Assembly: GCA_020725895.1 (NCBI GenBank)
Contig: DYTO01000002.1
Span: 3,966-67,965 of the forward strand
Origin: Candidatus Hadarchaeum sp.
GTDB lineage: Archaea; Hadarchaeota; Hadarchaeia; Hadarchaeales; Hadarchaeaceae
Direction of reading: 5' to 3'
DNA length: 64,000 nucleotides
Shown here: piece by piece, positions 21,947 to 62,008 of the stretch
How positions within the stretch are numbered: position 1 is the first letter of the stretch
Layout of the letters: every line of letters starts with the position of its first letter
Translations under genes and position numbers: made by a program
The notes under the pieces: model-generated
Databases searched by the model: none
What the model was told of the DNA's origin: nothing
The model's input: the letters and a program-made list of their open reading frames with translations, nothing else

Positions 21947-22043
21947 TGGTGGGCCCGAAGGGATTCGAACCCTTGACCACCCGGTTATGAGCTTCGTCCG
22001 GTTTTCGCCGTCGGACGCTCTAACCTAGCTGAGCTACGGGCCC
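21947..22043 (-). tRNA. tRNA-Met (CAU) candidate with a 19-nt non-canonical intron between positions 30 and 31
   Basis: The minus-strand sequence is GGGCCCG-UA-GCUC AGCUAGGUUA GAGC-G-UCCG[ACGGCGAAAACCGGACGAA]G-CUCAUAA-CCGGG-UGGUC-AAGGG UUCGAAU CCCUU-CGGGCCC-A-CCA. Removing the bracketed segment gives the anticodon stem UCCGG/CCGGG. Confidence 0.6.
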
Positions 22044-22774
22044 TATCGGTTCTATGTTGCCTGCTCTAAAATACGTTTTTGAACGGGTGTAATACCATTT
22101 GTAAAGCTTACCGTTCGATTTTTTTACGTTGGCCTTCAGTGGCGAAAATTCAACGCCCAGAAATTTACGGCTCAATACAATTACTTGGTTGAGAAAACGT
22201 CTATCTTTCTGGACTATTGTTACACACGATCCAGCAACATGTCCATCAGAATCTATTAGGCCGCGCAAGAACTGTTCGAAAAAATCTCGTTTCCACACTA
22301 CTAAAGGAACTTTGAGTTTGCCATATTTGAGATCTATTGGGACGCCCAAACTGACAAAATACGCGTAAATAACTACGCTATCTACTCTCAACTCTAGCCA
22401 ACTTTTATGTTCACGCTCTTGATTATCTTTGGAAAATACAAAAAATTCTTCGCAAAAATGCTCGAAATATGTTTGGCTTGCGCTTTACCCTCAGTTGAGT
22501 TTGGTGCGTAGATTGAGAGCGTATATCTGGCACCGCCACATTTTCTTGGCTGCGGCGTTTTCAAACATCCGTCTCCACAAAGAACACCTAACAAATATGC
22601 AATGTCTCGCGTAACAGAAGGGACGGATATTTTGTTTTTTGATCTTTTAACGACGAATTTGTTATAATCGTCAAGTCTATACTCGATATTCCATTCATTA
22701 AGTAAGTTTATCACATCGTTTTGGTGTTGACTTTGCATATTACCAAGATGAGTTTTTACGTTGGGTTTAAGCAA
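22020..22774 (-). pseudogene. LAGLIDADG homing-endonuclease-like gene disrupted by a frameshift (two ORFs, 126 aa + 123 aa)
   Basis: The upstream ORF carries IAYLLGVLCGDGCL and the downstream ORF carries LRGLIDSDGHV. Together they span 250 codons, the same as the intact paralog at 55745..56497. The downstream ORF is in the +2 frame and overlaps the 5' 24 nt of tRNA-Met. Confidence 0.6.
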
Positions 22775-24869: not shown

Positions 24870-25024
24870 TGGCGCCGGGGAGAGGACTCGAACCTCTGAC
24901 CTCCTGGTCGCTGCTCACAAGCGCGTCGTACCTTCTGTTGAGGTTCGTTCATCATCCGCGCTTGGTTTTAACAGCCAGGCACGCTACCTACTGCGCCATC
25001 GAGCCGCTTTCGCGGTACCCCGGC
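24870..25024 (-). tRNA. tRNA-Asn (GUU) with two introns: a 19-nt insertion after position 9 and a 60-nt canonical intron after position 37
   Basis: Minus strand: GCCGGGG-UA-[CCGCGAAAGCGGCUCGAUG]-GCGC AGUAGGUA GCGU-G-CCUGG-CUGUUA[60 nt]A-CCAGG-AGGUC-AGAGG UUCGAGU CCUCU-CCCCGGC-G-CCA. The large intron contains GGAUGAUGA, which is box-C-like. Confidence 0.65.
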
Positions 25025-25109
25025 GCATCCGGCGCCAAAGGATAATCCAATCTTTTCCATATAAGGCATTTCGGCAAACGAGGTCGCCGGCGCGAAAATT
25101 GTGGTGGTG

Positions 25110-25201
25110 CGGGCCCGCTGGGATTTGAACCCGGATTTCTCCCTGTCTGCCATTGACAGGGTTAGCGGGGGAGTAGACTATACTGGTTGTCTTACGGGCC
25201 C
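25110..25201 (-). tRNA. tRNA-like locus (intron-containing tRNA or tRNA pseudogene; anticodon unresolved)
   Basis: The acceptor stem GGGCCCG/CGGGCCC and a T-arm GGGUUCAAAUCCC are clear. The D-loop lacks GG and the T-stem has one mismatch. About 18 extra nt in the anticodon region cannot be spliced to give U33. Confidence 0.35.
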
Positions 25202-26846: not shown

Positions 26847-28115
26847 ATGCCAAAGCCGCACGTCAACCTAGTTTTCATAGGGCACGTTGACCACGGCAAG
26901 TCCACGCTTGTGGGCAGGATACTCGTCGAGATGGGGATGGTCAGGGAGGAGGACATCCGCAAGTTCGAGGCGATGGGAGACAAGGGGAAGACGTTCAAGT
27001 TCGCGTGGGTCATGGACCGCGAGAAGGAGGAGCGTGAGAGGGGGCTCACGATCGACATCGCATACCAGAAGCTCGAGACCCAGAAGAACTTCATAACTAT
27101 CATCGACGCGCCGGGGCACCGCGACTTCGTCAAGAACATGATCACAGGCGCTAGCCAGGCGGACGCCGCGGTCCTTGTCGTGGCGGCCGACGACGGCATA
27201 ATGCCGCAGACCCGCGAGCATGCGGCGTTGTCGTTCACTCTTGGAGTTGATCAGTTGATCATCGCGATCAACAAGATGGACACCGTCGACTTCAAGCAGG
27301 ATGTTTACAACAAGATAAAGGGTGAACTCTCTGCCCTCCTGACTGGGATAGGATACAGAAATGTTGAAAAGTTCCCGTTCGTCCCGATTTCCGCTTTTCA
27401 CGGAGTGAACATCTCGAAGACTAGCACGAATCTGCAATGGTACAAGGGCCTGACTTTGATTCAGGCGATGGAAGGCCTGATGGAGCCGGAGAAACCGATC
27501 AACAAGCCACTCAGGATTCCGATACAGGATATTTTTTCCGTGACCGGGATCGGCACGGTCCCGATAGGCCGCGTCGAAACTGGTGTTGTGAAAGTTGGTG
27601 ACACCCTGATTTTCGAGCCAGCCGGGGTGAAAGGCGAGGTGAAGTCGATAGAGATGCACCACGAGCAAATTCAGAAGGCGGTCCCCGGCGACAACATAGG
27701 TTTCAACGTGAGGGGAGTGAACCGAGAACAGCTGAGGAGAGGGGACGTCGCGGGACACGCGGACAAGCCCCCGAACGTAGCGACCGAGTTCACGGCCAAG
27801 ATAGTCGTGCTGGCGACGCCGACTGATATAACCGCCGGTTTCACGCCTCTTTTTCACTGCCATGCGGCTCACGAGCCCGGGAAGATTTTGGAAATAGTAC
27901 AGAAGATCGACCCGAAGACAGGAGGCGTCACGGAGGAAAAGCCGAGCAGCCTCAAGAAGGGTGACGCCGGGGTCATCAGGGTTTCCTTGCTGAAACCAAT
28001 GGTCCTGGAGAAGGCGAGTGATGTTTCTGAGCTCAGCAGATTCGCGGTGAGGCACGGTGGACAGACGGTCGCAGCCGGGATTTGTGTCGACACAGTTTCG
28101 CTGAAGCGCAGTTAA
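26847..28115 (+). CDS. elongation factor 1-alpha paralog (second copy; divergent domain III and C-terminus)
   Basis: 422 aa with a full GTPase domain, [14 protein letters not shown] and NKMD. It is roughly 65-70% identical to the canonical copy at 45015..46283 and shares a 143-nt identical tract with it. The HxHTAQ block is altered to HCHAAHEPGK. Confidence 0.85.
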   Translation: MPKPHVNLVFIGHVDHGKSTLVGRILVEMGMVREEDIRKFEAMGDKGKTFKFAWVMDREKEERERGLTIDIAYQKLETQKNFITIIDAPGHRDFVKNMITGASQADAAVLVVAADDGIMPQTREHAALSFTLGVDQLIIAINKMDTVDFKQDVYNKIKGELSALLTGIGYRNVEKFPFVPISAFHGVNISKTSTNLQWYKGLTLIQAMEGLMEPEKPINKPLRIPIQDIFSVTGIGTVPIGRVETGVVKVGDTLIFEPAGVKGEVKSIEMHHEQIQKAVPGDNIGFNVRGVNREQLRRGDVAGHADKPPNVATEFTAKIVVLATPTDITAGFTPLFHCHAAHEPGKILEIVQKIDPKTGGVTEEKPSSLKKGDAGVIRVSLLKPMVLEKASDVSELSRFAVRHGGQTVAAGICVDTVSLKRS

Positions 28116-40423: not shown

Positions 40424-40616
40424 TGGTAGCGGGGGGTGGACTTGAACCACCGACTTCCCGCGCCCGCGCTCGACGCACGGACGTCTCCGGGTCTCGCAGG
40501 AGCGCCAAACCCACGGCTTGACGCCTTATGAGCTTCGCCCGTGGTTTCCCACGTCCGGCGGGCACTCCATGCTGCCTTGGGGGCAGAGTAGTTTCCTACG
40601 CTGCTCTACCCCGCTA
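40424..40616 (-). tRNA. long tRNA locus (193 nt) with ~117 nt of intronic sequence; CUCAUAA (Met-like) loop motif present
   Basis: Acceptor AGCGGGG/CCCCGCU, T-arm GGUGG UUCAAGU CCACC, discriminator A and an encoded CCA. The interior contains CGAAGCUCAUAA, as in the tRNA-Met at 21947. The exact splice sites are unresolved. Confidence 0.45.
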
Positions 40617-40718
40617 CAGGTCGTCCTCGCTACCGTAGATTCGATTTATTTTGTGGGATAAATGATTTGCGTTCTTGAAAAATGCGCAGCGAAAACCAGC
40701 CGTATTCGACAGAAATAT

Positions 40719-55496: not shown

Positions 55497-55513
55497 GAGG
55501 TTTCACCGCAAAG

Positions 55514-55588
55514 CGGGCCCGGTGGGATTCGAACCCACGACACCCGGCTTAAAAGGCCGGTGCGCTAGCCAGACTGCGCTACGGGCCC
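55514..55588 (-). tRNA. tRNA-Lys (UUU), intronless
   Basis: GGGCCCG-UA-GCGC AGUCUGGCUA GCGC-A-CCGGC-CUUUUAA-GCCGG-GUGUC-GUGGG UUCGAAU CCCAC-CGGGCCC-G. The CCA is not encoded. Confidence 0.85.
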
Positions 55589-55711
55589 CAAAAAGCGGCT
55601 GTCCTTTTTTGTGTTCGCTATTAACGTTGAAACCGAGGGCTTATAAATACTTTTGATTGGGGGACTTTGAAGTTTTTCGATGTTTTGGATTAGACGGGCA
55701 TAAACATCAGG

Positions 55712-55800
55712 CGCCCTGGCCGAGATTTGAACTCGGGGCAAAGCCTATCTGCGGAAACCGCGACAGGGCTTTATGTTAGACCGGGCTACACCACCAGGGC
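55712..55800 (-). tRNA. tRNA-Asp (GUC) candidate with a ~14-nt canonical intron
   Basis: GCCCUGG-UG-GUGU AGCCCGGUCUA ACAU-A-AAGCC-CUGUCG[CGGUUUCCGCAGAU]A-GGCUU-UGCC-CCGAG UUCAAAU CUCGG-CCAGGGC-G. Confidence 0.6.
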
Positions 55801-56497
55801 ACCATTTCTCTAGATATTTTTCCAACTTAAGACGTTTGTGAGGAATCGCAATCCTCGGCAAAAGATAATTTTTTAGCCAATCGACGTTCTTTTTCGACAC
55901 GACGAATTCTATAGTCCACCAAGAACCCCGGATTATCCTTCCATAGTATACATGACTTTTGCTTTGCCAATACATCGAAACCTTGCAATTCATGTTCATT
56001 TGTATCGCATTTCTCAGCGCATAGTTCGGTTTTCCATTGCTGATCCTTATGCAGCACTGAGGGGTTTTTCTGCTGTACCCCCTGGAGCGGATATCGCCGT
56101 CACCATCAATCACACCTGCCAGATACGTGCCAAACAAAAATGGATTTTGAGAGATCCAAAGTGGGATGGTCATATCGCGAAAACGTATTTCTAAATTTTC
56201 CAGTGGTTCAAGCAAACATTTGACGCTTGTCCCTACTTTGTACCTGCCGTCGGAAAAGCGATGTATTTTCAGCTTTCTTCCCAAGCTAGAATCAAAATTT
56301 TCTGCAAATCTTTCGAGCATGGGCAACGATTTCTCGCCCACGGCAAGTGATATTTCGAAGACGCGAAAATCATTTCCATTCTTCTTGGAGATGTAAGACG
56401 TCCTTTTTCCATCCGAATGCAATGCACCTAGCCAATAAGCCAAATCTGCATTTTTCACCAAGTCCATCTCATTCCCGATCCAAATTCGGAAATTCAT
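55745..56497 (-). CDS. free-standing LAGLIDADG homing-endonuclease-like protein (250 aa)
   Basis: Two motifs, LAYWLGALHSDGKRT and YLAGVIDGDGDI, in an AT-rich gene. The last 18 codons are read from the 5' half of tRNA-Asp. Confidence 0.75.
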   Translation of the reverse strand: MNFRIWIGNEMDLVKNADLAYWLGALHSDGKRTSYISKKNGNDFRVFEISLAVGEKSLPMLERFAENFDSSLGRKLKIHRFSDGRYKVGTSVKCLLEPLENLEIRFRDMTIPLWISQNPFLFGTYLAGVIDGDGDIRSRGYSRKTPQCCIRISNGKPNYALRNAIQMNMNCKVSMYWQSKSHVYYGRIIRGSWWTIEFVVSKKNVDWLKNYLLPRIAIPHKRLKLEKYLEKWCPGGVARSNIKPCRGFRR

Positions 56498-56557
56498 TTA
56501 AGCGGTTTGTCCACACGGGTCGCCGAAAGTAATCTTAGAATAACAGTAAGAAAAGGG

Positions 56558-56674
56558 CCGGCAGCGTATCGGAGTTCCCCATGGCTCGCGCACATGAGTA
56601 CAGTCCAGATCGCATGGCGGGTTTAACTTCCGGGATCGGACGAGACCGGGTGGGACCCCGCCGCTATGACCGCC
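56558..56674 (-). rRNA. rrf: 5S ribosomal RNA (stand-alone, not linked to 16S/23S)
   Basis: The minus strand reads GGCGGUCAUAGCGGCGGGGUCCCACCCGGUCUCGUCCGAUCCCGGAAGUUAAACCCGCC...CGCUGCC. This matches the archaeal 5S consensus, and the ends form helix I. Confidence 0.85.
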
Positions 56675-56719
56675 AACCCAAAATTAATTGAAATTTCTTG
56701 GTTTTATAGATTACCTATA

Positions 56720-57565
56720 TCATTTGGAAGGCAGCGTGAACTGGAATATGGAGCCCTTCCCGAGCTGGCTCGTCACCCAAATCTTCCCGCCGTGCGCCTT
56801 CACTATCTCCTTGCATATCGCGAGGCCGAGGCCCGTCCCGCCGTACTTCCTCTTCCCGGAGCTGTCAGCCTGGTAGAATTTCGTGAAAAGCTTGCCCACG
56901 TCTTTTCGCCCAATACCGATTCCGGTGTCGACGACTTGCACGAGCACAGAGTTGCCGGTCTTGCTCGCCTTGAGGGTGATCCCGCCCTTGTCCGTGAACT
57001 TTATCGCGTTGTTCAGGAGGTTCGTCAGCACCTGCGTGATCCTCACGGCGTCGCCCTTGATAGTCGGCAGGTTCTTTGGAACGACCTTCTTCAGGTATAT
57101 CTTCTTCTCCTTCGCGAAAGGCTCTGCGCTCGAGACGGCGTCGTTCGCGAGGCTCTCGAGCCTGACCTCCTCCATGTTGAACTTCATGACCTTCGACTCC
57201 AGCTTCGCGATGTCGAGGATGTCGCCGACGAGCCTCTGCAGCCTCTTGGTGTTCCTGATCGCGATCTCTAGGCTCTCCCTGTCCTCGGAGTCGAGCTTTT
57301 TCTTGTCAATCAATTGCAAGTAACCGACCATCGGGACCATTGGCGTCTTCAGCTCGTGCGCGGCCATGTTCATGAACTCGGTCTTGAGCTTGTCCACGGA
57401 TTTCAGCTTCTCATGCGCGCGCCTGATCTCGGCCTCGTGCATATCCTTGATCCTGAGCAGCTGCCTCGTGTATCGCAGCGAGTTAATGATGATCGCCAGC
57501 TCTACTATCACGAGGGAGACGAGGGCGACGAAGGCCCCGATGATTATGATGTCTATGTCTGCCAA
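56720..57565 (-). CDS. sensor histidine kinase (HisKA + HATPase_c) with N-terminal TM helix
   Basis: An H-box AAHELKTPM and N/G1/G2 boxes LLNNAIKFT, VVDTGIGI and GGTGLGL. Confidence 0.85.
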   Translation of the reverse strand: MADIDIIIIGAFVALVSLVIVELAIIINSLRYTRQLLRIKDMHEAEIRRAHEKLKSVDKLKTEFMNMAAHELKTPMVPMVGYLQLIDKKKLDSEDRESLEIAIRNTKRLQRLVGDILDIAKLESKVMKFNMEEVRLESLANDAVSSAEPFAKEKKIYLKKVVPKNLPTIKGDAVRITQVLTNLLNNAIKFTDKGGITLKASKTGNSVLVQVVDTGIGIGRKDVGKLFTKFYQADSSGKRKYGGTGLGLAICKEIVKAHGGKIWVTSQLGKGSIFQFTLPSK

Positions 57566-57590
57566 ACCATCACCGCGATTTCCGTTCTGT

Positions 57591-57956
57591 TCACGATTCC
57601 AGGAGCTCCTTTACCTTGGCCACAAGCTCGTCGGGGTCGAAAGGTTTTGAGATGTATTTCGGCATCCCGAACTTGAACAATTTCACTTGCGCTTGCGGGC
57701 CGATGTCGAGCGCCGAGAGGAAAGCTATCTTCTGGTTTTTGTTCATCGTCTTTATCTTTTCGAAGACCTTGTAGCCGTCGATGCCCGGCAGCATGATGTC
57801 GAGCAGGATCAGGTCTGGTTTGTCCTTTTCGTAGTTCTTGACGCAATCTTCGCCGTTATCGTAGCCGACGAAATCGTAGCCTTCTCTCTTCAATATCTTC
57901 TCGATCAGAGCCAAGGTTTCGGGGCGGTCCTCGATCGCCATTATTTTTTTCGCCAT
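57591..57956 (-). CDS. response regulator receiver protein (CheY-like, single domain)
   Basis: 121 aa with the phospho-acceptor Asp in LILLDIMLPGIDG and a conserved Lys in KPF. Confidence 0.85.
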   Translation of the reverse strand: MAKKIMAIEDRPETLALIEKILKREGYDFVGYDNGEDCVKNYEKDKPDLILLDIMLPGIDGYKVFEKIKTMNKNQKIAFLSALDIGPQAQVKLFKFGMPKYISKPFDPDELVAKVKELLES

Positions 57957-58030
57957 TCCACCACTTCATGTTTGTTTACTGAAATCAATCGCTCGGCGTG
58001 GTTTTATCTTTTTTGAAAATGGTTCGGAGA

Positions 58031-58142
58031 TGGTCCCGCGGGGGAGATTTGAACTCCCGACATGTCGGTGGCCGCTAAGGATCTACAGCCGACCACTCTA
58101 ACCAGGCTGAGTTTGCGGGGCGGTTTCGCGCCTTACCGCGGG
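58031..58142 (-). tRNA. tRNA-Tyr (GUA) with two introns: a 21-nt insertion after position 9 and a 13-nt canonical intron
   Basis: CCCGCGG-UA-[AGGCGCGAAACCGCCCCGCAA]-ACUC AGCCUGGUUA GAGU-G-GUCGG-CUGUAG[AUCCUUAGCGGCC]A-CCGAC-AUGUC-GGGAG UUCAAAU CUCCC-CCGCGGG-A-CCA. Confidence 0.65.
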
Positions 58143-58310
58143 ACGCGGGACCAGTTTAAGGTGAAATTCGTTTGTTAAAAATCTTCCTTATTTCTTCGCA
58201 GTTTTTATCGTGGATTTTTTCCGCTGTCCCGGCCAGCAGATCGGGCAGGACCCGCCGCCCGAATATTCGTGCCCGCGACTGCAAACTTTACGCCGCGTCA
58301 TTTTCCCAAC

Positions 58311-59435
58311 TCAAGTTGTTTTGATTTCTATTAAATCGTGAAGCCGGCGCACCGCACGGAGCTTCTCCTCGTTGCCGAGCCTAGCCCCGTCAATCGCGTT
58401 TTTCAAAATGTCTATCGTCTTCTGGTACGTTGGGCGGTCAACCGGGTAAGGTATCCCATCCTTCCCGCCGTGCGCCCAGCAGTACTTTGTGGGGTCCTTC
58501 CATGACGGCGGCTTCCCGTAGACGAGTTCAGAGACGAGCGCCAGCGCGCGGATAGACTTCGGTCCTATTCCGCGGAGTGAGACCAGCTCCTCGTAGCTAC
58601 TCGGCTGGATCTCGTAGGCGGCCTTCAGGGCCCGCATCGTGCGCTCCGTGAGTTCATCGATCGTGTGGCGCGCGGGCATGACAAGGATCTTCTGCGATTG
58701 CGAACGTTCGCAATAATCCTCAAGCGAAAGTTGCCCCGCCTTCCGGACGTACGGGCCGAGCCTAGTCGGGCAGTCGCGGACCAGGTCAAGGCTCGTCCCC
58801 CGCGCTTCCTCGCTCTCGCCCGCCGTCATATCGAGGACGGAACTTTCAACGCGCTCGGAGGCGATTCCCGAATGCGGCTCCTCGACAAATTCCGAAACGT
58901 TTTCGGAGAGCCAGTGGTATCGCCTGGCGAACATCTCGTTCATCCCCTGCTGGACGACAGCCCAGTCGCCGTCCTCGCTCATGATGAAAGTGTGGTGGTA
59001 AAGCTGGTAGCCGTCCTGGACGCACGAGTTGTCGACCTTGGCGGCCATCCTGCTCGCATACTTGAGTCGCTCGACTTTTTTCGAGCTCAGCGAAAAGACA
59101 CCGGAAACTTTTTCAATCTCATCTGGCGTCTTCCTGGAGACTTTCCCCTTCCCGCCGCAGACCGCAACGCCAAGCTCTTCGGGCTTTATCGCCTCCTTCA
59201 GGGCGCCCATCGTAGTTGTGGTCGTCCCGCTTGAGTGCCAGTCGAAGCCCATCACGCAGCTCAGAGCTTGGAAGAAGAAAGGATCTGCGAGCCTCCGAAG
59301 CAACTCTTCCCTCCCGTACTCCTCAACTATAATCGTCGAGATCTCCCCGCTCAGCTTCCTCATCCGGCCGAAAAGCCATGCTGGGCATTTGCCGCCGTGC
59401 AAAGGAAGCTGCGCCATGCCTACTCTTCTCAACAA
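58311..59435 (-). CDS. conserved hypothetical protein (DUF763-like) with helix-hairpin-helix motif
   Basis: A 374-aa ORF. An HhH-like LVSLRGIGPKSIRALALV and a conserved WAHGGKDGIPYPVDR block are present. The likely start is MAQLPL at 59417. Confidence 0.5.
   Translation of the reverse strand: MLRRVGMAQLPLHGGKCPAWLFGRMRKLSGEISTIIVEEYGREELLRRLADPFFFQALSCVMGFDWHSSGTTTTTMGALKEAIKPEELGVAVCGGKGKVSRKTPDEIEKVSGVFSLSSKKVERLKYASRMAAKVDNSCVQDGYQLYHHTFIMSEDGDWAVVQQGMNEMFARRYHWLSENVSEFVEEPHSGIASERVESSVLDMTAGESEEARGTSLDLVRDCPTRLGPYVRKAGQLSLEDYCERSQSQKILVMPARHTIDELTERTMRALKAAYEIQPSSYEELVSLRGIGPKSIRALALVSELVYGKPPSWKDPTKYCWAHGGKDGIPYPVDRPTYQKTIDILKNAIDGARLGNEEKLRAVRRLHDLIEIKTT
58698..58713. repeat. 16-nt perfect palindrome TTGCGAACGTTCGCAA (shares the 12-nt core with the 295/519 motif)
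   Basis: It lies inside the DUF763-like coding region. The 12-mer core would be expected fewer than 0.01 times by chance in 64 kb. Confidence 0.5.
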
Positions 59436-59572
59436 ATCACCGGCTTTCTCTACCCGACAAAATTAAAGCTGTTTTTGAGGAGGGGTGGGCGGAAGTATTA
59501 TTTTTCGCGGGGGGATGTCGAATTCCTGAATGGATTTTTAAGTCAACGAAAATAATCATCTCTGAGTCAACC

Positions 59573-59923
59573 ATGACCGATTGTCCAGTTTGCGGAAAAA
59601 ACAACCCGGATAACCAAAGGTCATGTTTCTGGTGCGGGGCCGACTTGACGGCGGCGAAAGCCGTGAAGATGGAGATCCGAGCTCCAACCGAGCCAAAACC
59701 GGTCGCAAAAGTCCAAGTCCCGGAACCGAAAGCCATGGCAAAATTCGAGCAGCCCCGATCTCAGAAGATTGAAATCCCGTCACCGGCGGCCGAGAGGAAG
59801 ATCCAACAAGCCATTCGTCAGCCCGAACAAACCAAGGATTATCTAAAACTAGCGCTGATTATAGCAACTATCGTCGTCATCGTTCTGGCGGCAATACTTT
59901 TCTTGGCATTGGGTCGTCATTGA
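59573..59923 (+). CDS. zinc-ribbon membrane protein
   Basis: MTDCPVCGKNNPDNQRSCFWCGADL (CxxC...CxxC) followed by a Pro/Lys-rich linker and a C-terminal TM helix. It is paralogous to the partial ORF at 63867. Confidence 0.5.
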   Translation: MTDCPVCGKNNPDNQRSCFWCGADLTAAKAVKMEIRAPTEPKPVAKVQVPEPKAMAKFEQPRSQKIEIPSPAAERKIQQAIRQPEQTKDYLKLALIIATIVVIVLAAILFLALGRH

Positions 59924-59934
59924 ATAGGCAATAT

Positions 59935-60150
59935 TTATTTCGTCAGGTAATATCCAGCAGACTTTTCCCTAGCCACGCGTTTCGCGTATCCCTTGTTGAC
60001 GAGCTCGAGGACCGCGTTGTTCATCATTCCCTTGGGCATGTTGGAAGCCCGCATCACGTCGTCGGCCGTCTTCAGGGCGTTTGGGTTCGTCGCCCCGATC
60101 TTCTTCAGCGTGTCGTACACTTTCTGCGCGTTCGGACTCAAATCACTCAT
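59935..60150 (-). CDS. small winged-helix DNA-binding protein (putative transcription regulator)
   Basis: 71 aa with a wHTH-like layout, reading ...ASNMPKGMMNNAVLELVNKGYAKRV... Confidence 0.45.
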   Translation of the reverse strand: MSDLSPNAQKVYDTLKKIGATNPNALKTADDVMRASNMPKGMMNNAVLELVNKGYAKRVAREKSAGYYLTK

Positions 60151-60191
60151 GTTACCACCTCGTTACCTCTCTTTTTCTAAAATGGCGCCTT

Positions 60192-61043
60192 TTAAGCCTT
60201 GCCGGTTATTTTCATGCCCATGTCGATGGCCGGCGCTTTCATTGTCATGTAACTCGATGAGACCACGTCGACCCCCGTCGCAGCGAAATCCCCGATGTTC
60301 TTCAGGGTTATCCCGCCGGACGCCTCGAGCAGGACCTTGTCGCGCAGCTTCTTCCTTTCAAGAAGCCTCACGGCCCGCCTGACCTGGCTCGGGGTCATGT
60401 TATCCAAGAGGATTATATCCGCGCCAGCCTGTGCGGCAGGAACTACGTCTTCAACTTCCGCGACCTCGACCTCGACTTTCCCCTTGTTCGTGGCCTTGGC
60501 CATCTTCACGGCCTTCTCAATCGAACCGACGATCTTGAGGTGGTTTACCTTGATCAGGATTTGCTCGCTCAGGTTGTACCTGTGCGGTTCGCCGCCGGCT
60601 ATGATGACGGCGCGCTTGTCCAGGTATGTCAGGAGCGGTGCTGTTTTCCTAGTTGCAGAAACGCGGATTTTTGGGTTTCTTCCCCTGGCCTTTTCCACCA
60701 TCTCTTTCGTGGCGGTGGCGATCCCGCTCATCCTCATGAGGAGGTTCAGGGCAACGCGCTCCGCCCCGAATATTTTTTTGGCCGTCCCCTCGACCCTGAT
60801 CACTTCCATCCCTGGCTTCACCGATGAGCCGTCCTCCACGAGAATCTCTGAAAAAACACCGTTCTCGCTGAAAACGGAAACCGTTTCCACCGCCCCGGCA
60901 AGAACGCATGCCTGCTTAGCGACGATTACCCCCCTCGCTTTTTCGCTGCTTTTCAAAAGGGCGTTCGACGTGATGTCGCCGGAAGCGATGTCCTCCGCGA
61001 GCATTTCCTTTATTTTCTTCTTCAAGTCCACCATTTGCCTCAC
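60192..61043 (-). CDS. nadC: nicotinate-nucleotide pyrophosphorylase [carboxylating] (quinolinate phosphoribosyltransferase)
   Basis: 283 aa with the QPRTase fold. It is adjacent to nadX. Confidence 0.85.
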   Translation of the reverse strand: MRQMVDLKKKIKEMLAEDIASGDITSNALLKSSEKARGVIVAKQACVLAGAVETVSVFSENGVFSEILVEDGSSVKPGMEVIRVEGTAKKIFGAERVALNLLMRMSGIATATKEMVEKARGRNPKIRVSATRKTAPLLTYLDKRAVIIAGGEPHRYNLSEQILIKVNHLKIVGSIEKAVKMAKATNKGKVEVEVAEVEDVVPAAQAGADIILLDNMTPSQVRRAVRLLERKKLRDKVLLEASGGITLKNIGDFAATGVDVVSSSYMTMKAPAIDMGMKITGKA

Positions 61044-61880
61044 CTATGTCCCGATCCTTACAGCCTCGCTCAGATTTTTGAGTGTCCTGACAGCGGAGAG
61101 CGCCGCGAGGTAGCTTGTCTTGCGCGAGTCCGGGAAAGGCAGGTTCCTGGCTATCGTCACCAACTCCCCGGATTTTCCCCGCACGATTATCTCGTGGACG
61201 TTCTTCCTGAGCTTGGGGTCGGCGATTATCCTCACACGGGTCTTGTCGAGGCCTATTCCAGCAAGGCTCAAAGTCGCGGCGACGTTCACGCTAGCTGGGA
61301 ACGCTTTGACTGCTTTGCGGGCCGGGCCGTCGAATATCAATCGCGGCTTTTTCAAATTCTTCAAATTGATCCCGCGTTTTTTGATGTATTCGCCGTAGGC
61401 GAGCGCTGCCGGCGGCTTGCTTGTCGTCAGGATGACCCGCCTGATTTTTCCGATGGCCGCCGCTTTGACGCCGTCTATCCCGAGAATCGCGCCGGATGGG
61501 ATGAAGACTCGGCGTTCGTTTTTGTCCGCGGCTTTCCTGACGCTGTTCAAGAGTTTTTGGTCTGAGAATGCGCCGACCGACATCACCATGAGGTCCTTTT
61601 TGGAGTTCAGGACGTCGAGCGCGTACTGCTCGACCGCGAGCTGGGAGGCGGACTCGATCACGAGGTCGACATCCTCATCCGCGTATATGTCGGTGGCGGC
61701 GGCGGCTATTTTCGGTTTTGAACGTAGTTTCTTGACGAGTTTCTCTGACTTGTCGCGCCTTATGTCGTATAACCAGACCAGCCTGGCCTCGCCCGCCACG
61801 CCCTTGTCGATGGCCTTTGCAAGCGTCGTGCCTATCGCACCGCAGCCGATTATCGCGACGTATAGTTTCATCAACCTCAA
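61044..61880 (-). CDS. nadX: L-aspartate dehydrogenase
   Basis: An N-terminal IIGCGAIG Rossmann motif and a 278-aa NadX-family ORF in an operon with nadC. Confidence 0.8.
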   Translation of the reverse strand: MRLMKLYVAIIGCGAIGTTLAKAIDKGVAGEARLVWLYDIRRDKSEKLVKKLRSKPKIAAAATDIYADEDVDLVIESASQLAVEQYALDVLNSKKDLMVMSVGAFSDQKLLNSVRKAADKNERRVFIPSGAILGIDGVKAAAIGKIRRVILTTSKPPAALAYGEYIKKRGINLKNLKKPRLIFDGPARKAVKAFPASVNVAATLSLAGIGLDKTRVRIIADPKLRKNVHEIIVRGKSGELVTIARNLPFPDSRKTSYLAALSAVRTLKNLSEAVRIGT

Positions 61881-61931
61881 TAGTATTCGACGCTTTTAAT
61901 TTTGGTGTTTTTGGTTTGCAGGATATGGAAA

Positions 61932-62008
61932 TGGTGGGCCCGGAGGGATTCGAACCCTCGATCTCCACCGTGTCAGGGTGGCGTCATAACCAACTGGACT
62001 ACAGGCCC
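61932..62008 (-). tRNA. tRNA-Val (GAC), intronless, CCA encoded
   Basis: GGGCCUG-UA-GUCC AGUUGGUUA UGAC-G-CCACC-CUGACAC-GGUGG-AGAUC-GAGGG UUCGAAU CCCUC-CGGGCCC-A-CCA. Confidence 0.8.

Follow-up and report, generated by a model that had tools for sequence, protein, structure and literature searches.

We analyzed a 64,000-nt stretch of Candidatus Hadarchaeum DNA (the window, meaning the whole stretch; all feature coordinates below are window positions) that carries eight tRNA or tRNA-like genes, all on the minus strand. Six of the eight are interrupted, by 11 proposed introns together, and the interrupted genes have TATA-like boxes upstream and T-runs downstream. Two of them code for tRNA-Asn(GUU) and tRNA-Tyr(GUA). 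The pre-tRNA-Asn gene, delimited with ARAGORN and Rfam, spans 155 nt from G1 to the encoded CCA (24870-25024). Read along the minus strand, it consists of exon GCCGGGGU, a 19-nt intron ACCGCGAAAGCGGCUCGAU, exon GGCGCAGUAGGUAGCGUGCCUGGCUGUUA, a 60-nt intron and exon ACCAGGAGGUCAGAGGUUCGAGUCCUCUCCCCGGCGCCA. The 112-nt pre-tRNA-Tyr gene (58031-58142), recovered by ARAGORN after splicing, also has two introns, of 21 nt and 13 nt, along with a C1-G72 base pair and an encoded CCA.

ARAGORN finds no tRNA in the unspliced Asn or Tyr precursor, nor when the anticodon-loop intron alone is taken out. With only the 19-nt segment removed, it calls a tRNA-Asn(GUU) with a 60-nt intron at position 37/38, and removal of both segments gives a 76-nt tRNA-Asn(GUU) cloverleaf with a score of 124. 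A 78-nt tRNA-Tyr(GUA) scoring 115 is likewise called once both Tyr segments are removed. The intron option of ARAGORN located neither gene, and at a low threshold it returned 205 calls, mostly spurious. The Rfam tRNA model matched the Asn precursor partially (32.6 bits) and the Tyr precursor with a wrong acceptor stem (31.3 bits). Two further genes of the window, for an initiator and an elongator tRNA-Met, score 120 and 127 with ARAGORN after splicing and give no call before it. As ARAGORN and Rfam miss such genes, the tRNA sets of genomes containing them would look incomplete. The initial annotation had held that the Asn and Tyr cloverleafs form only after two segments are removed; it was right to the exact coordinates. 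The hairpins it quoted from the 5′ insertions (CCGC-GAAA-GCGG in Asn, GGCG-CGAAAC-CGCC in Tyr), the 60-nt Asn intron and the box C-like motif GGAUGAUGA are all found in the sequence.

The introns would be excised by the archaeal splicing endonuclease (EndA) at bulge-helix-bulge (BHB) motifs and the exons joined by an RNA ligase. We scored junctions for a 4-bp helix flanked by two bulges of 3 nt, with the cut in each bulge placed after the second base. The BHB motifs sought at the proposed junctions are present at all 11 introns: the central helix is 4/4 paired in seven and 3/4 in four, the chance of a 4/4 helix at a random junction pair being about 0.02. The 19-nt Asn intron (24998-25016) is at 8/9 and forms a strict hBHBh′ structure, with the BHB between an outer (h) and an inner (h′) helix. 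Its central helix pairs C3G4G5G6 (CGGG) with CUCG (4/4), the bulges are GU|A and AU|G, the inner stem is the 4-bp CCGC-GAAA-GCGG hairpin with its GAAA loop, and the outer stem has 5 bp. Placing this intron at 9/10 yields no BHB. At 8/9 it leaves U8 G9 in the mature tRNA, as found in the intron-less relatives L002 and L004, which share its GCGC D-stem. The 21-nt Tyr intron AGGCGCGAAACCGCCCCGCAA (58113-58133) is at 9/10, with a 4/4 central helix (GCGG/CCGC), bulges UA|A and AA|A, a 4-bp inner stem and no outer helix. By BHB geometry, the proposed insertion after position 9 is correct for Tyr but not for Asn (8/9) or for the initiator tRNA-Met (10/11). Both proposed 37/38 introns have a 4/4 central helix. 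The 60-nt Asn intron (24909-24968; CUGU/GCAG) has a kink-turn (K-turn) hairpin inside, and the 13-nt Tyr intron (58070-58082; two of its pairs are G-U) has a 5-bp outer stem. The original multi-intron reading holds: a hairpin intron recurs at the acceptor/D junction, alongside a canonical one at 37/38.

The non-canonical introns follow one plan: an A, a hairpin that often has a GAAA loop, 4 nt that pair with the upstream exon, and AA or AU. Every non-canonical intron in the window begins with A and ends in AA or AU. These shared ends suggest a common origin or a strong endonuclease preference; the window introns are alike across tRNAs, yet too short for a homology test of Thermoproteales-type transposition. 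An alpha4 EndA with an L3 loop has been reported in Hadesarchaea. The CCCG/CUCG segment of the Asn 8/9 intron is kept across 17 loci while its hairpin is variable. The central helix of the Asn 37/38 intron is 98% paired over 38 sequences, the sole changes being U-A to U-G.

The gene at 40424-40615 encodes an initiator tRNA-Met, recognizable by its A1-U72 and G29G30G31/C39C40C41 pairs and CAU anticodon. It had been listed as a tRNA at 40424-40616 with about 117 extra nt; the large excess is real but comes to 114 nt, distributed over four BHB-flanked introns. A brute-force search for one to three introns in this gene gave no solution, and four introns with one relaxed helix account for all 114 extra bases, leaving a 78-nt cloverleaf that ARAGORN scores at 120. 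The four predicted introns are at 10/11 (40577-40605, 29 nt, with a GUAG-GAAA-CUAC hairpin and a 3/4 central helix in the strict register), 30/31 (40534-40554, 21 nt, central helix 4/4, inner stem 5 bp), 37/38 (40493-40526, 34 nt, central helix 3/4) and 45/46 (40455-40484, 30 nt, central helix 3/4, inner stem 9 bp). No outer helix is present at the relaxed 10/11 site, where the minimum free energy (MFE) fold uses G4-G7/CCCC with a 4-nt bulge. The reviews consulted give three introns as the maximum per archaeal tRNA gene, and a literature search for four introns in one tRNA gene returned a red alga only. The four predicted here, like the four in the tRNA-Asn gene of a related locus (L086), exceed that maximum.

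Wherever a tRNA has an intron between 8/9 and 10/11, its 5′ acceptor strand is preceded, at a distance of 0-7 nt, by a near copy of itself; four different acceptor sequences are represented. The Asn copy GGCGCCGG (25029-25036) is complementary to the 3′ acceptor strand CCGGCGCC plus G73 C74 C75, and is paired with them in the MFE fold of the full precursor. The Tyr copy GGUCCCGCG (58144-58152), 1 nt upstream of C1 in the context ggu-CCCGCG-u-CCCGCGGUA, pairs with CGCGGGACC in the MFE fold. The initiator Met copy GGUAGCGAGG (40625-40634) is 9 nt before A1, or 7 nt upstream of the GU next to A1 (context gGUAGCGAGG-acgaccu-GUAGCGGGG); it matches (GUAGCGAGG) the gene's own acceptor sequence, and its MFE partner is CCCCGCUACC. 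All 17 Asn loci that have the 8/9 intron carry a near copy of GCCGGGG 1-4 nt 5′ of the true G1; none of the 22 lacking the intron does. Two GGGCCCG tRNAs with different 9/10 introns (L082 and L116) also carry a matching copy. In a control scan that did not demand a copy, one was present in 12 of 12 tRNAs with a real 5′-proximal intron and in 1 of 47 without such an intron; the exception, L123, is closely related to L082. Nine tRNAs seemed to have a 5′ intron but no copy; with a normal acceptor-to-T-arm distance, they proved to be ordinary tRNAs that the D-arm filter had placed in the wrong class. The reviews and papers searched hold no description of a leader copy of the acceptor strand, which is not proof of novelty.

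The upstream copy does not serve as the true exon 1. U8 follows the downstream copy only, and several of the upstream copies (GCCGAGG, GCCGGG, GCGCCGG) would break the acceptor stem. Also rejected was one larger intron that would start at the upstream copy and extend to the 3′ splice site; it has no fitting BHB register and would leave a base other than U at position 8.

Four intron bases in these genes have acceptor positions 3-6 or 4-7 as pairing partners, which makes the BHB and the acceptor stem mutually exclusive. We computed partition-function folds for 20 precursors, with their other introns removed and the leader native, deleted or shuffled. With the native leader, the true exon hardly ever pairs with the 3′ strand (probability 0.00-0.01 at 37 °C for 19 of the 20 precursors), and 17 of the 20 form the BHB central helix with a probability of 0.2-0.99. 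Once the leader is deleted, the acceptor stem has a probability of 0.84-1.0 and the BHB helix drops to 0.00 in 19 of 20 (0.14 in L082). A shuffled leader gives the same trend more weakly (acceptor stem 0.10-1.0; BHB helix 0.00-0.33, with 0.79 in L082). For Tyr, the probability of the BHB helix is 0.99 with the native leader versus 0.01 with a shuffled one. When the Asn, Tyr and initiator Met precursors are folded at full length, the MFE structures at both 37 and 65 °C pair the copy and its GGY leader with the 3′ strand and N73-C74-C75.

We estimate a probability of roughly 80% that these are functional, Hadarchaeota-like multi-intron tRNA genes whose introns are excised at BHB motifs, with the leader copy acting as a decoy and the 37/38 intron of tRNA-Asn containing a K-turn module. 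Besides the near copy of the 5′ acceptor strand, the leader retains its original bases, complementary to N73-C74-C75. In the mechanism we propose, the copy would hold the 3′ acceptor strand and so leave the true exon free for the BHB until EndA has cut. Splicing of the introns at 8/9 to 10/11 would then precede maturation of the 5′ end by RNase P; in Methanopyrus kandleri, the measured order is the opposite of this (PMC3695527).

Several observations weigh against the decoy model. When the precursors are spliced in silico, nearest-neighbor energies still favor the leader-copy helix, with the true stem at a probability of 0.00-0.29 at either temperature (0.23/0.57 in L105); the model thus needs an unexplained hand-over of the 3′ strand to the true exon. 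The strict-register BHB helix is predicted to be improbable in the window Asn, the L086 Asn and the initiator Met precursors because a neighboring register competes. Introns that disrupt other stems (30/31, 59/60 and 68/69) have no analogous copy, and inspection by eye found no decoy-like copy for the 68/69 intron (L108 and L111). The 17 Asn loci are not independent, as they may go back to one shared ancestral event. Lastly, a perfect GGGCCCG-GGGCCCG tandem occurs without an intron in L123 (minus strand, at about 6628 in reverse-complement coordinates). L082 (at about 7224), on a closely related contig, has the same tRNA(CAU) with a leader copy and a 20-nt 9/10 intron. Two histories would account for this: loss of the intron with retention of the copy, or a duplication that preceded intron gain.

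The upstream copy could instead be a neutral scar of tandem duplication, or be kept similar to the exon by gene conversion, with no role in splicing. The Asn copy sits where G1 lies in intron-less relatives, relative to the TATA-like box and leader (e.g. GUAAAAUGGY), as a duplication predicts; L123 has the duplication without an intron, and after splicing the copy is predicted to hinder the acceptor stem. Against a scar, four unrelated acceptor sequences show the same architecture, which 46 of the 47 tRNAs without a 5′-proximal intron lack. Pairwise identity is 88% in the copy versus 38% in the 10 nt just beyond its three conserved leader bases, even as the hairpins of the introns diverged strongly. 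Folding also predicts no BHB without the copy. On balance we consider a scar without function unlikely, though it deserves to be taken seriously.

To follow the Asn 37/38 intron across relatives, metagenomes were searched with a pattern in which the anticodon loop, GGAUGANGAA and GUUCRA were the only three fixed elements. This returned 44 loci, 40 of them tRNA-Asn genes. Together with Hadarchaeota metagenome-assembled genomes (MAGs) and the window, the loci gave an alignment (A1) of 38 distinct intron sequences. All 38 have the same order of elements: the BHB central helix, a 6-9 bp stem, G-AUGAWGA and ACGA(A/G)CCUCAA, followed by 5-10 variable bases, N(C/U)GA and the return strand of the stem. 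In this structure 97% of cells are paired and six of the nine K-turn stem pairs vary on both sides. None of 500 shuffles matched the observed paired fraction or covariation score, and slid controls, with partners off by one to three columns, gave 24-47% pairing.

In the window, the covarying C-stem of the K-turn is formed by CAAGCGCG (24957-24964) and CGCGCUUG (24918-24925). The box C-like GAUGAUGA (24949-24956) corresponds to A1 columns G23-A31, which are invariant save for one A/U position; the window's AUGAUGA fits the consensus RUGAUGA, and the other 37 sequences have AUGAAGA, with one deviation. The GA of the D-like ACGA (24926-24929) opposes the GA of box C and directly adjoins the 6-9 bp stem. 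The G and A of this box are invariant in all 38 sequences and the preceding base is C in 36 and U in two, giving NCGA or NUGA and never CUGA. At the sequence level, the signature of a K-turn with box C on its bulged strand is present: the -1b/-1n pair is G-C in 36 of 38, there is a GAU bulge, G1b, A2b, A1n and G2n are invariant, and a second G-A / A-G pair lies one position further. Judged by this signature, the h′ helix of the Asn 37/38 BHB is capped by a K-turn, with AUGAWGA facing NYGA, that is probably bound by L7Ae. This putative K-turn closes an invariant single-stranded loop.

This loop, ACGAACCUCAA (24938-24948, A1 columns 32-42), reads ACGARCCUCAA and is invariant but for one A/G position among the 38 sequences, though the search pattern did not specify it. 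Its segment CGAACCUC is complementary to T-arm positions G50-G57 of tRNA-Asn itself, an 8-nt run that 99 of 20000 shuffles reach; the predicted duplex has -14.2 kcal/mol versus about -10.4 for the window's other GGUUCGA tRNAs. The one substitution in the loop, A to G in six sequences (ACGAGCC), retains the pairing as G-U. The trailing CAA is invariant but unable to pair with the tRNA, so T-arm pairing alone is insufficient to explain the conservation of the loop. A full-length target for the loop was found neither in the window nor in about 1 Mb of related loci (in which the rRNA covered was 5S), save for the intron's own antisense strand. An H/ACA-like architecture was rejected for the intron, which has no pseudouridylation pocket and no ACA box, and the loop's variable half has no conserved pairing partner. 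The 8-nt complementarity to the T-arm is the best lead on a role for the loop, a lead rather than a finding.

The initial annotation had likened the Asn intron to a C/D small RNA (sRNA). The box C-like motif, conserved in 38 sequences, and the covarying stem bear this out in part; a canonical guide of the tRNA-Trp type it is not, given the absence of CUGA and of C′/D′ boxes, the 18-20 nt loop, the variable bases on the D side and the lack of an Rfam match. It could still be a genuine C/D methylation guide that acts on its own tRNA, for example in 2′-O-methylation of T-loop C56. Besides a conserved box C consensus, a K-turn partner and a terminal stem, this reading has in its favor the T-arm complementarity just described, with its low shuffle frequency and its six G-U-preserving variants, and the position of the loop G that would pair with C56, exactly five bases upstream of the invariant UCAA. 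Cm56 is a hallmark archaeal modification, and a guided form has precedent in the C/D small ribonucleoprotein of Pyrobaculum aerophilum (PMC7912444). The evidence to the contrary starts with the boxes, as the intron has neither a CUGA box D nor a C′/D′ pair, and no GA-containing D′ or C′ occurs in the 18-20 nt between its boxes. The conserved element adjoins box C, and the fifth-nucleotide rule fits C56 only if UCAA is read as D′, which lacks the GA required of a D′ box. Only 7 nt separate box C from this putative D′; the norm for a C/D guide spacer is about 12 nt. Next to the D-like box there is no conserved antisense element, since the 10-12 nt upstream of it vary freely among the 38 sequences. 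The T-arm is invariant across the data set, so no covariation signal is possible. No Rfam C/D family reached its gathering score, the best being sR41 (12.2 bits, E = 2.2). A true methylation guide therefore seems improbable.

A bolder version of our interpretation would have the leader copy required in cis for splicing at the acceptor/D junction, forcing splicing to come before RNase P, and the excised Asn intron persisting as a stable, L7Ae-bound K-turn RNA, a minimal single-K-turn guide or a chaperone for the T-arm; we regard this as speculative and rather doubtful. That the interrupted genes are pseudogenes, or that the mature RNA keeps the insertions as additional arms, would agree with standard tRNA finders missing or under-scoring them but is very improbable indeed, given perfectly conserved exons and canonical cloverleafs (with C1-G72 in Tyr and A1-U72 plus three G-C pairs in the initiator), BHB geometry bounding every insertion, compensatory change over 38 homologous introns, a promoter-like box and T-run, and the essential nature of an initiator tRNA.

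Multi-intron tRNAs are known from Thermoproteales, ARMAN-2 and Korarchaeum, and have been noted for Hadesarchaea YNP_N21. As here, each junction in those tRNAs has a strict or relaxed BHB, and similar intron designs recur between tRNAs. The present genes differ in their Hadarchaeota-like lineage, in the four introns predicted in one gene and in the clustering of introns at 8/9 to 10/11, positions not listed in the review text consulted. The archaeal tRNA-Trp intron nests a box C/D sRNA that guides Cm34 and Um39. Like it, the Asn intron is about 60 nt long at the canonical position, has a box C, a K-turn partner and a terminal stem, and is complementary to its own tRNA. Unlike it, the host is tRNA-Asn, there is no CUGA box D and no C′/D′, and one loop of 18-20 nt stands in place of two 12-nt guides; the conserved sequence is beside box C rather than box D, and the complementarity is to the T-arm rather than the anticodon arm. 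With the K-turn and K-loop RNAs bound by L7Ae (C/D and H/ACA sRNAs, RNase P RNA and the L7Ae mRNA leader), the Asn module shares the stem, the 3-nt bulge (GAU) and tandem G-A/A-G pairs; the Asn candidate differs in capping the h′ helix of a tRNA intron BHB and in its second G-A / A-G pair. In bacterial pre-tRNAs, pairing of the leader with the 3′RCCA extends the acceptor stem and inhibits RNase P (PMC9433436). The leader here likewise pairs with N73-C74-C75, but it duplicates the whole 5′ acceptor strand and is predicted to replace the exon, not merely to extend the helix.

The lineage of the window was assessed from EF-1alpha (26847-28115), encoded about 1.9 kb from the Asn gene. The protein is 60-72% identical to those of Hadesarchaea and Hadarchaeota MAGs, the closest among the matches listed; 10 of the 12 best loci listed (L001-L012) are named Hadesarchaea or Hadarchaeota, and L007 is titled Candidatus Hodarchaeaceae. 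In four of these MAGs a tRNA-Asn gene with a homologous 37/38 intron lies near EF-1alpha. Since heavy disruption of tRNA genes in Hadesarchaea has already been noted (PMC5829648), the general phenomenon is known, and the Thermoproteales- and Korarchaeota-like setting first suggested for these introns does not apply. The tRNA-Asn genes of the related lineages have further introns at about 22/23 (two unrelated sequence families), at 59/60 in the T-loop and at 68/69 in the 3′ acceptor strand; the relatives with additional introns are L086, L082, L085, L100, L114, L123, L108 and L111. The K-turn 37/38 intron is the constant element of these genes, and the other introns come and go. Orthologues of the Tyr and initiator Met genes were absent from the related loci retrieved.

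Two other tRNA genes of the window have a single intron, both as originally proposed. The tRNA(CAU) at 21947-22043, an elongator tRNA-Met or tRNA-Ile2, has a 19-nt intron at 30/31 (22011-21993) with a 4/4 central helix, and scores 127 with ARAGORN after splicing. It has neither a 5′ intron nor a leader copy. The 30/31 introns of the two CAU tRNAs (21993-22011 and 40534-40554, minus strand) are similar, ACGGCGAAAACCGGACGAA and ACGUGGGAAACCACGGGCGAA. The tRNA-Asp(GUC) gene (55710-55800) has a 14-nt intron at 37/38 (55760-55747) with a 4/4 central helix and a 7-bp outer stem; the long variable arm that ARAGORN gives this tRNA is an artefact of the intron. The tRNA-Asp gene belongs to a minus-strand group at 55513-62008 that also includes tRNA-Lys, 5S rRNA (56556-56677, 80 bits), tRNA-Tyr and tRNA-Val.

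About 85 nt upstream of tRNA-Asn is a tRNA-like gene (25110-25201, minus strand; Rfam tRNA 39.9 bits). Its anticodon loop is CCGCUAA, with C33 and a nominal GCU anticodon, and its variable region is 4 nt. The D-loop has no GG, a C-A mismatch occurs in the T-stem, and the gene does not encode CCA. It carries an 18-nt BHB-like intron whose central helix is 3/4 paired. No homologue is present in the related loci compared. Immediately upstream of the tRNA(CAU) at 21947-22043, and slightly overlapping it, are two neighboring open reading frames (22020-22391 and 22394-22774, minus strand) with LAGLIDADG homing-endonuclease motifs. The second matches Pfam LAGLIDADG_3 and Hom_end, and the two may be one gene with a frame break.

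Multi-intron tRNA genes were already known in archaea, and at its most basic our finding adds members from a little-studied phylum. Beyond this, the genes point to a rule: where the BHB of an intron borrows an acceptor strand, the leader supplies a second copy of it. Such a rule could explain how introns can occupy the acceptor/D junction, predicts that processing must follow one order and would aid tRNA finders. The tRNA-Asn gene would be the second host, after tRNA-Trp, of a C/D-like intron module, here in a stripped-down form with a single K-turn that may bear on the origin of guide RNAs.

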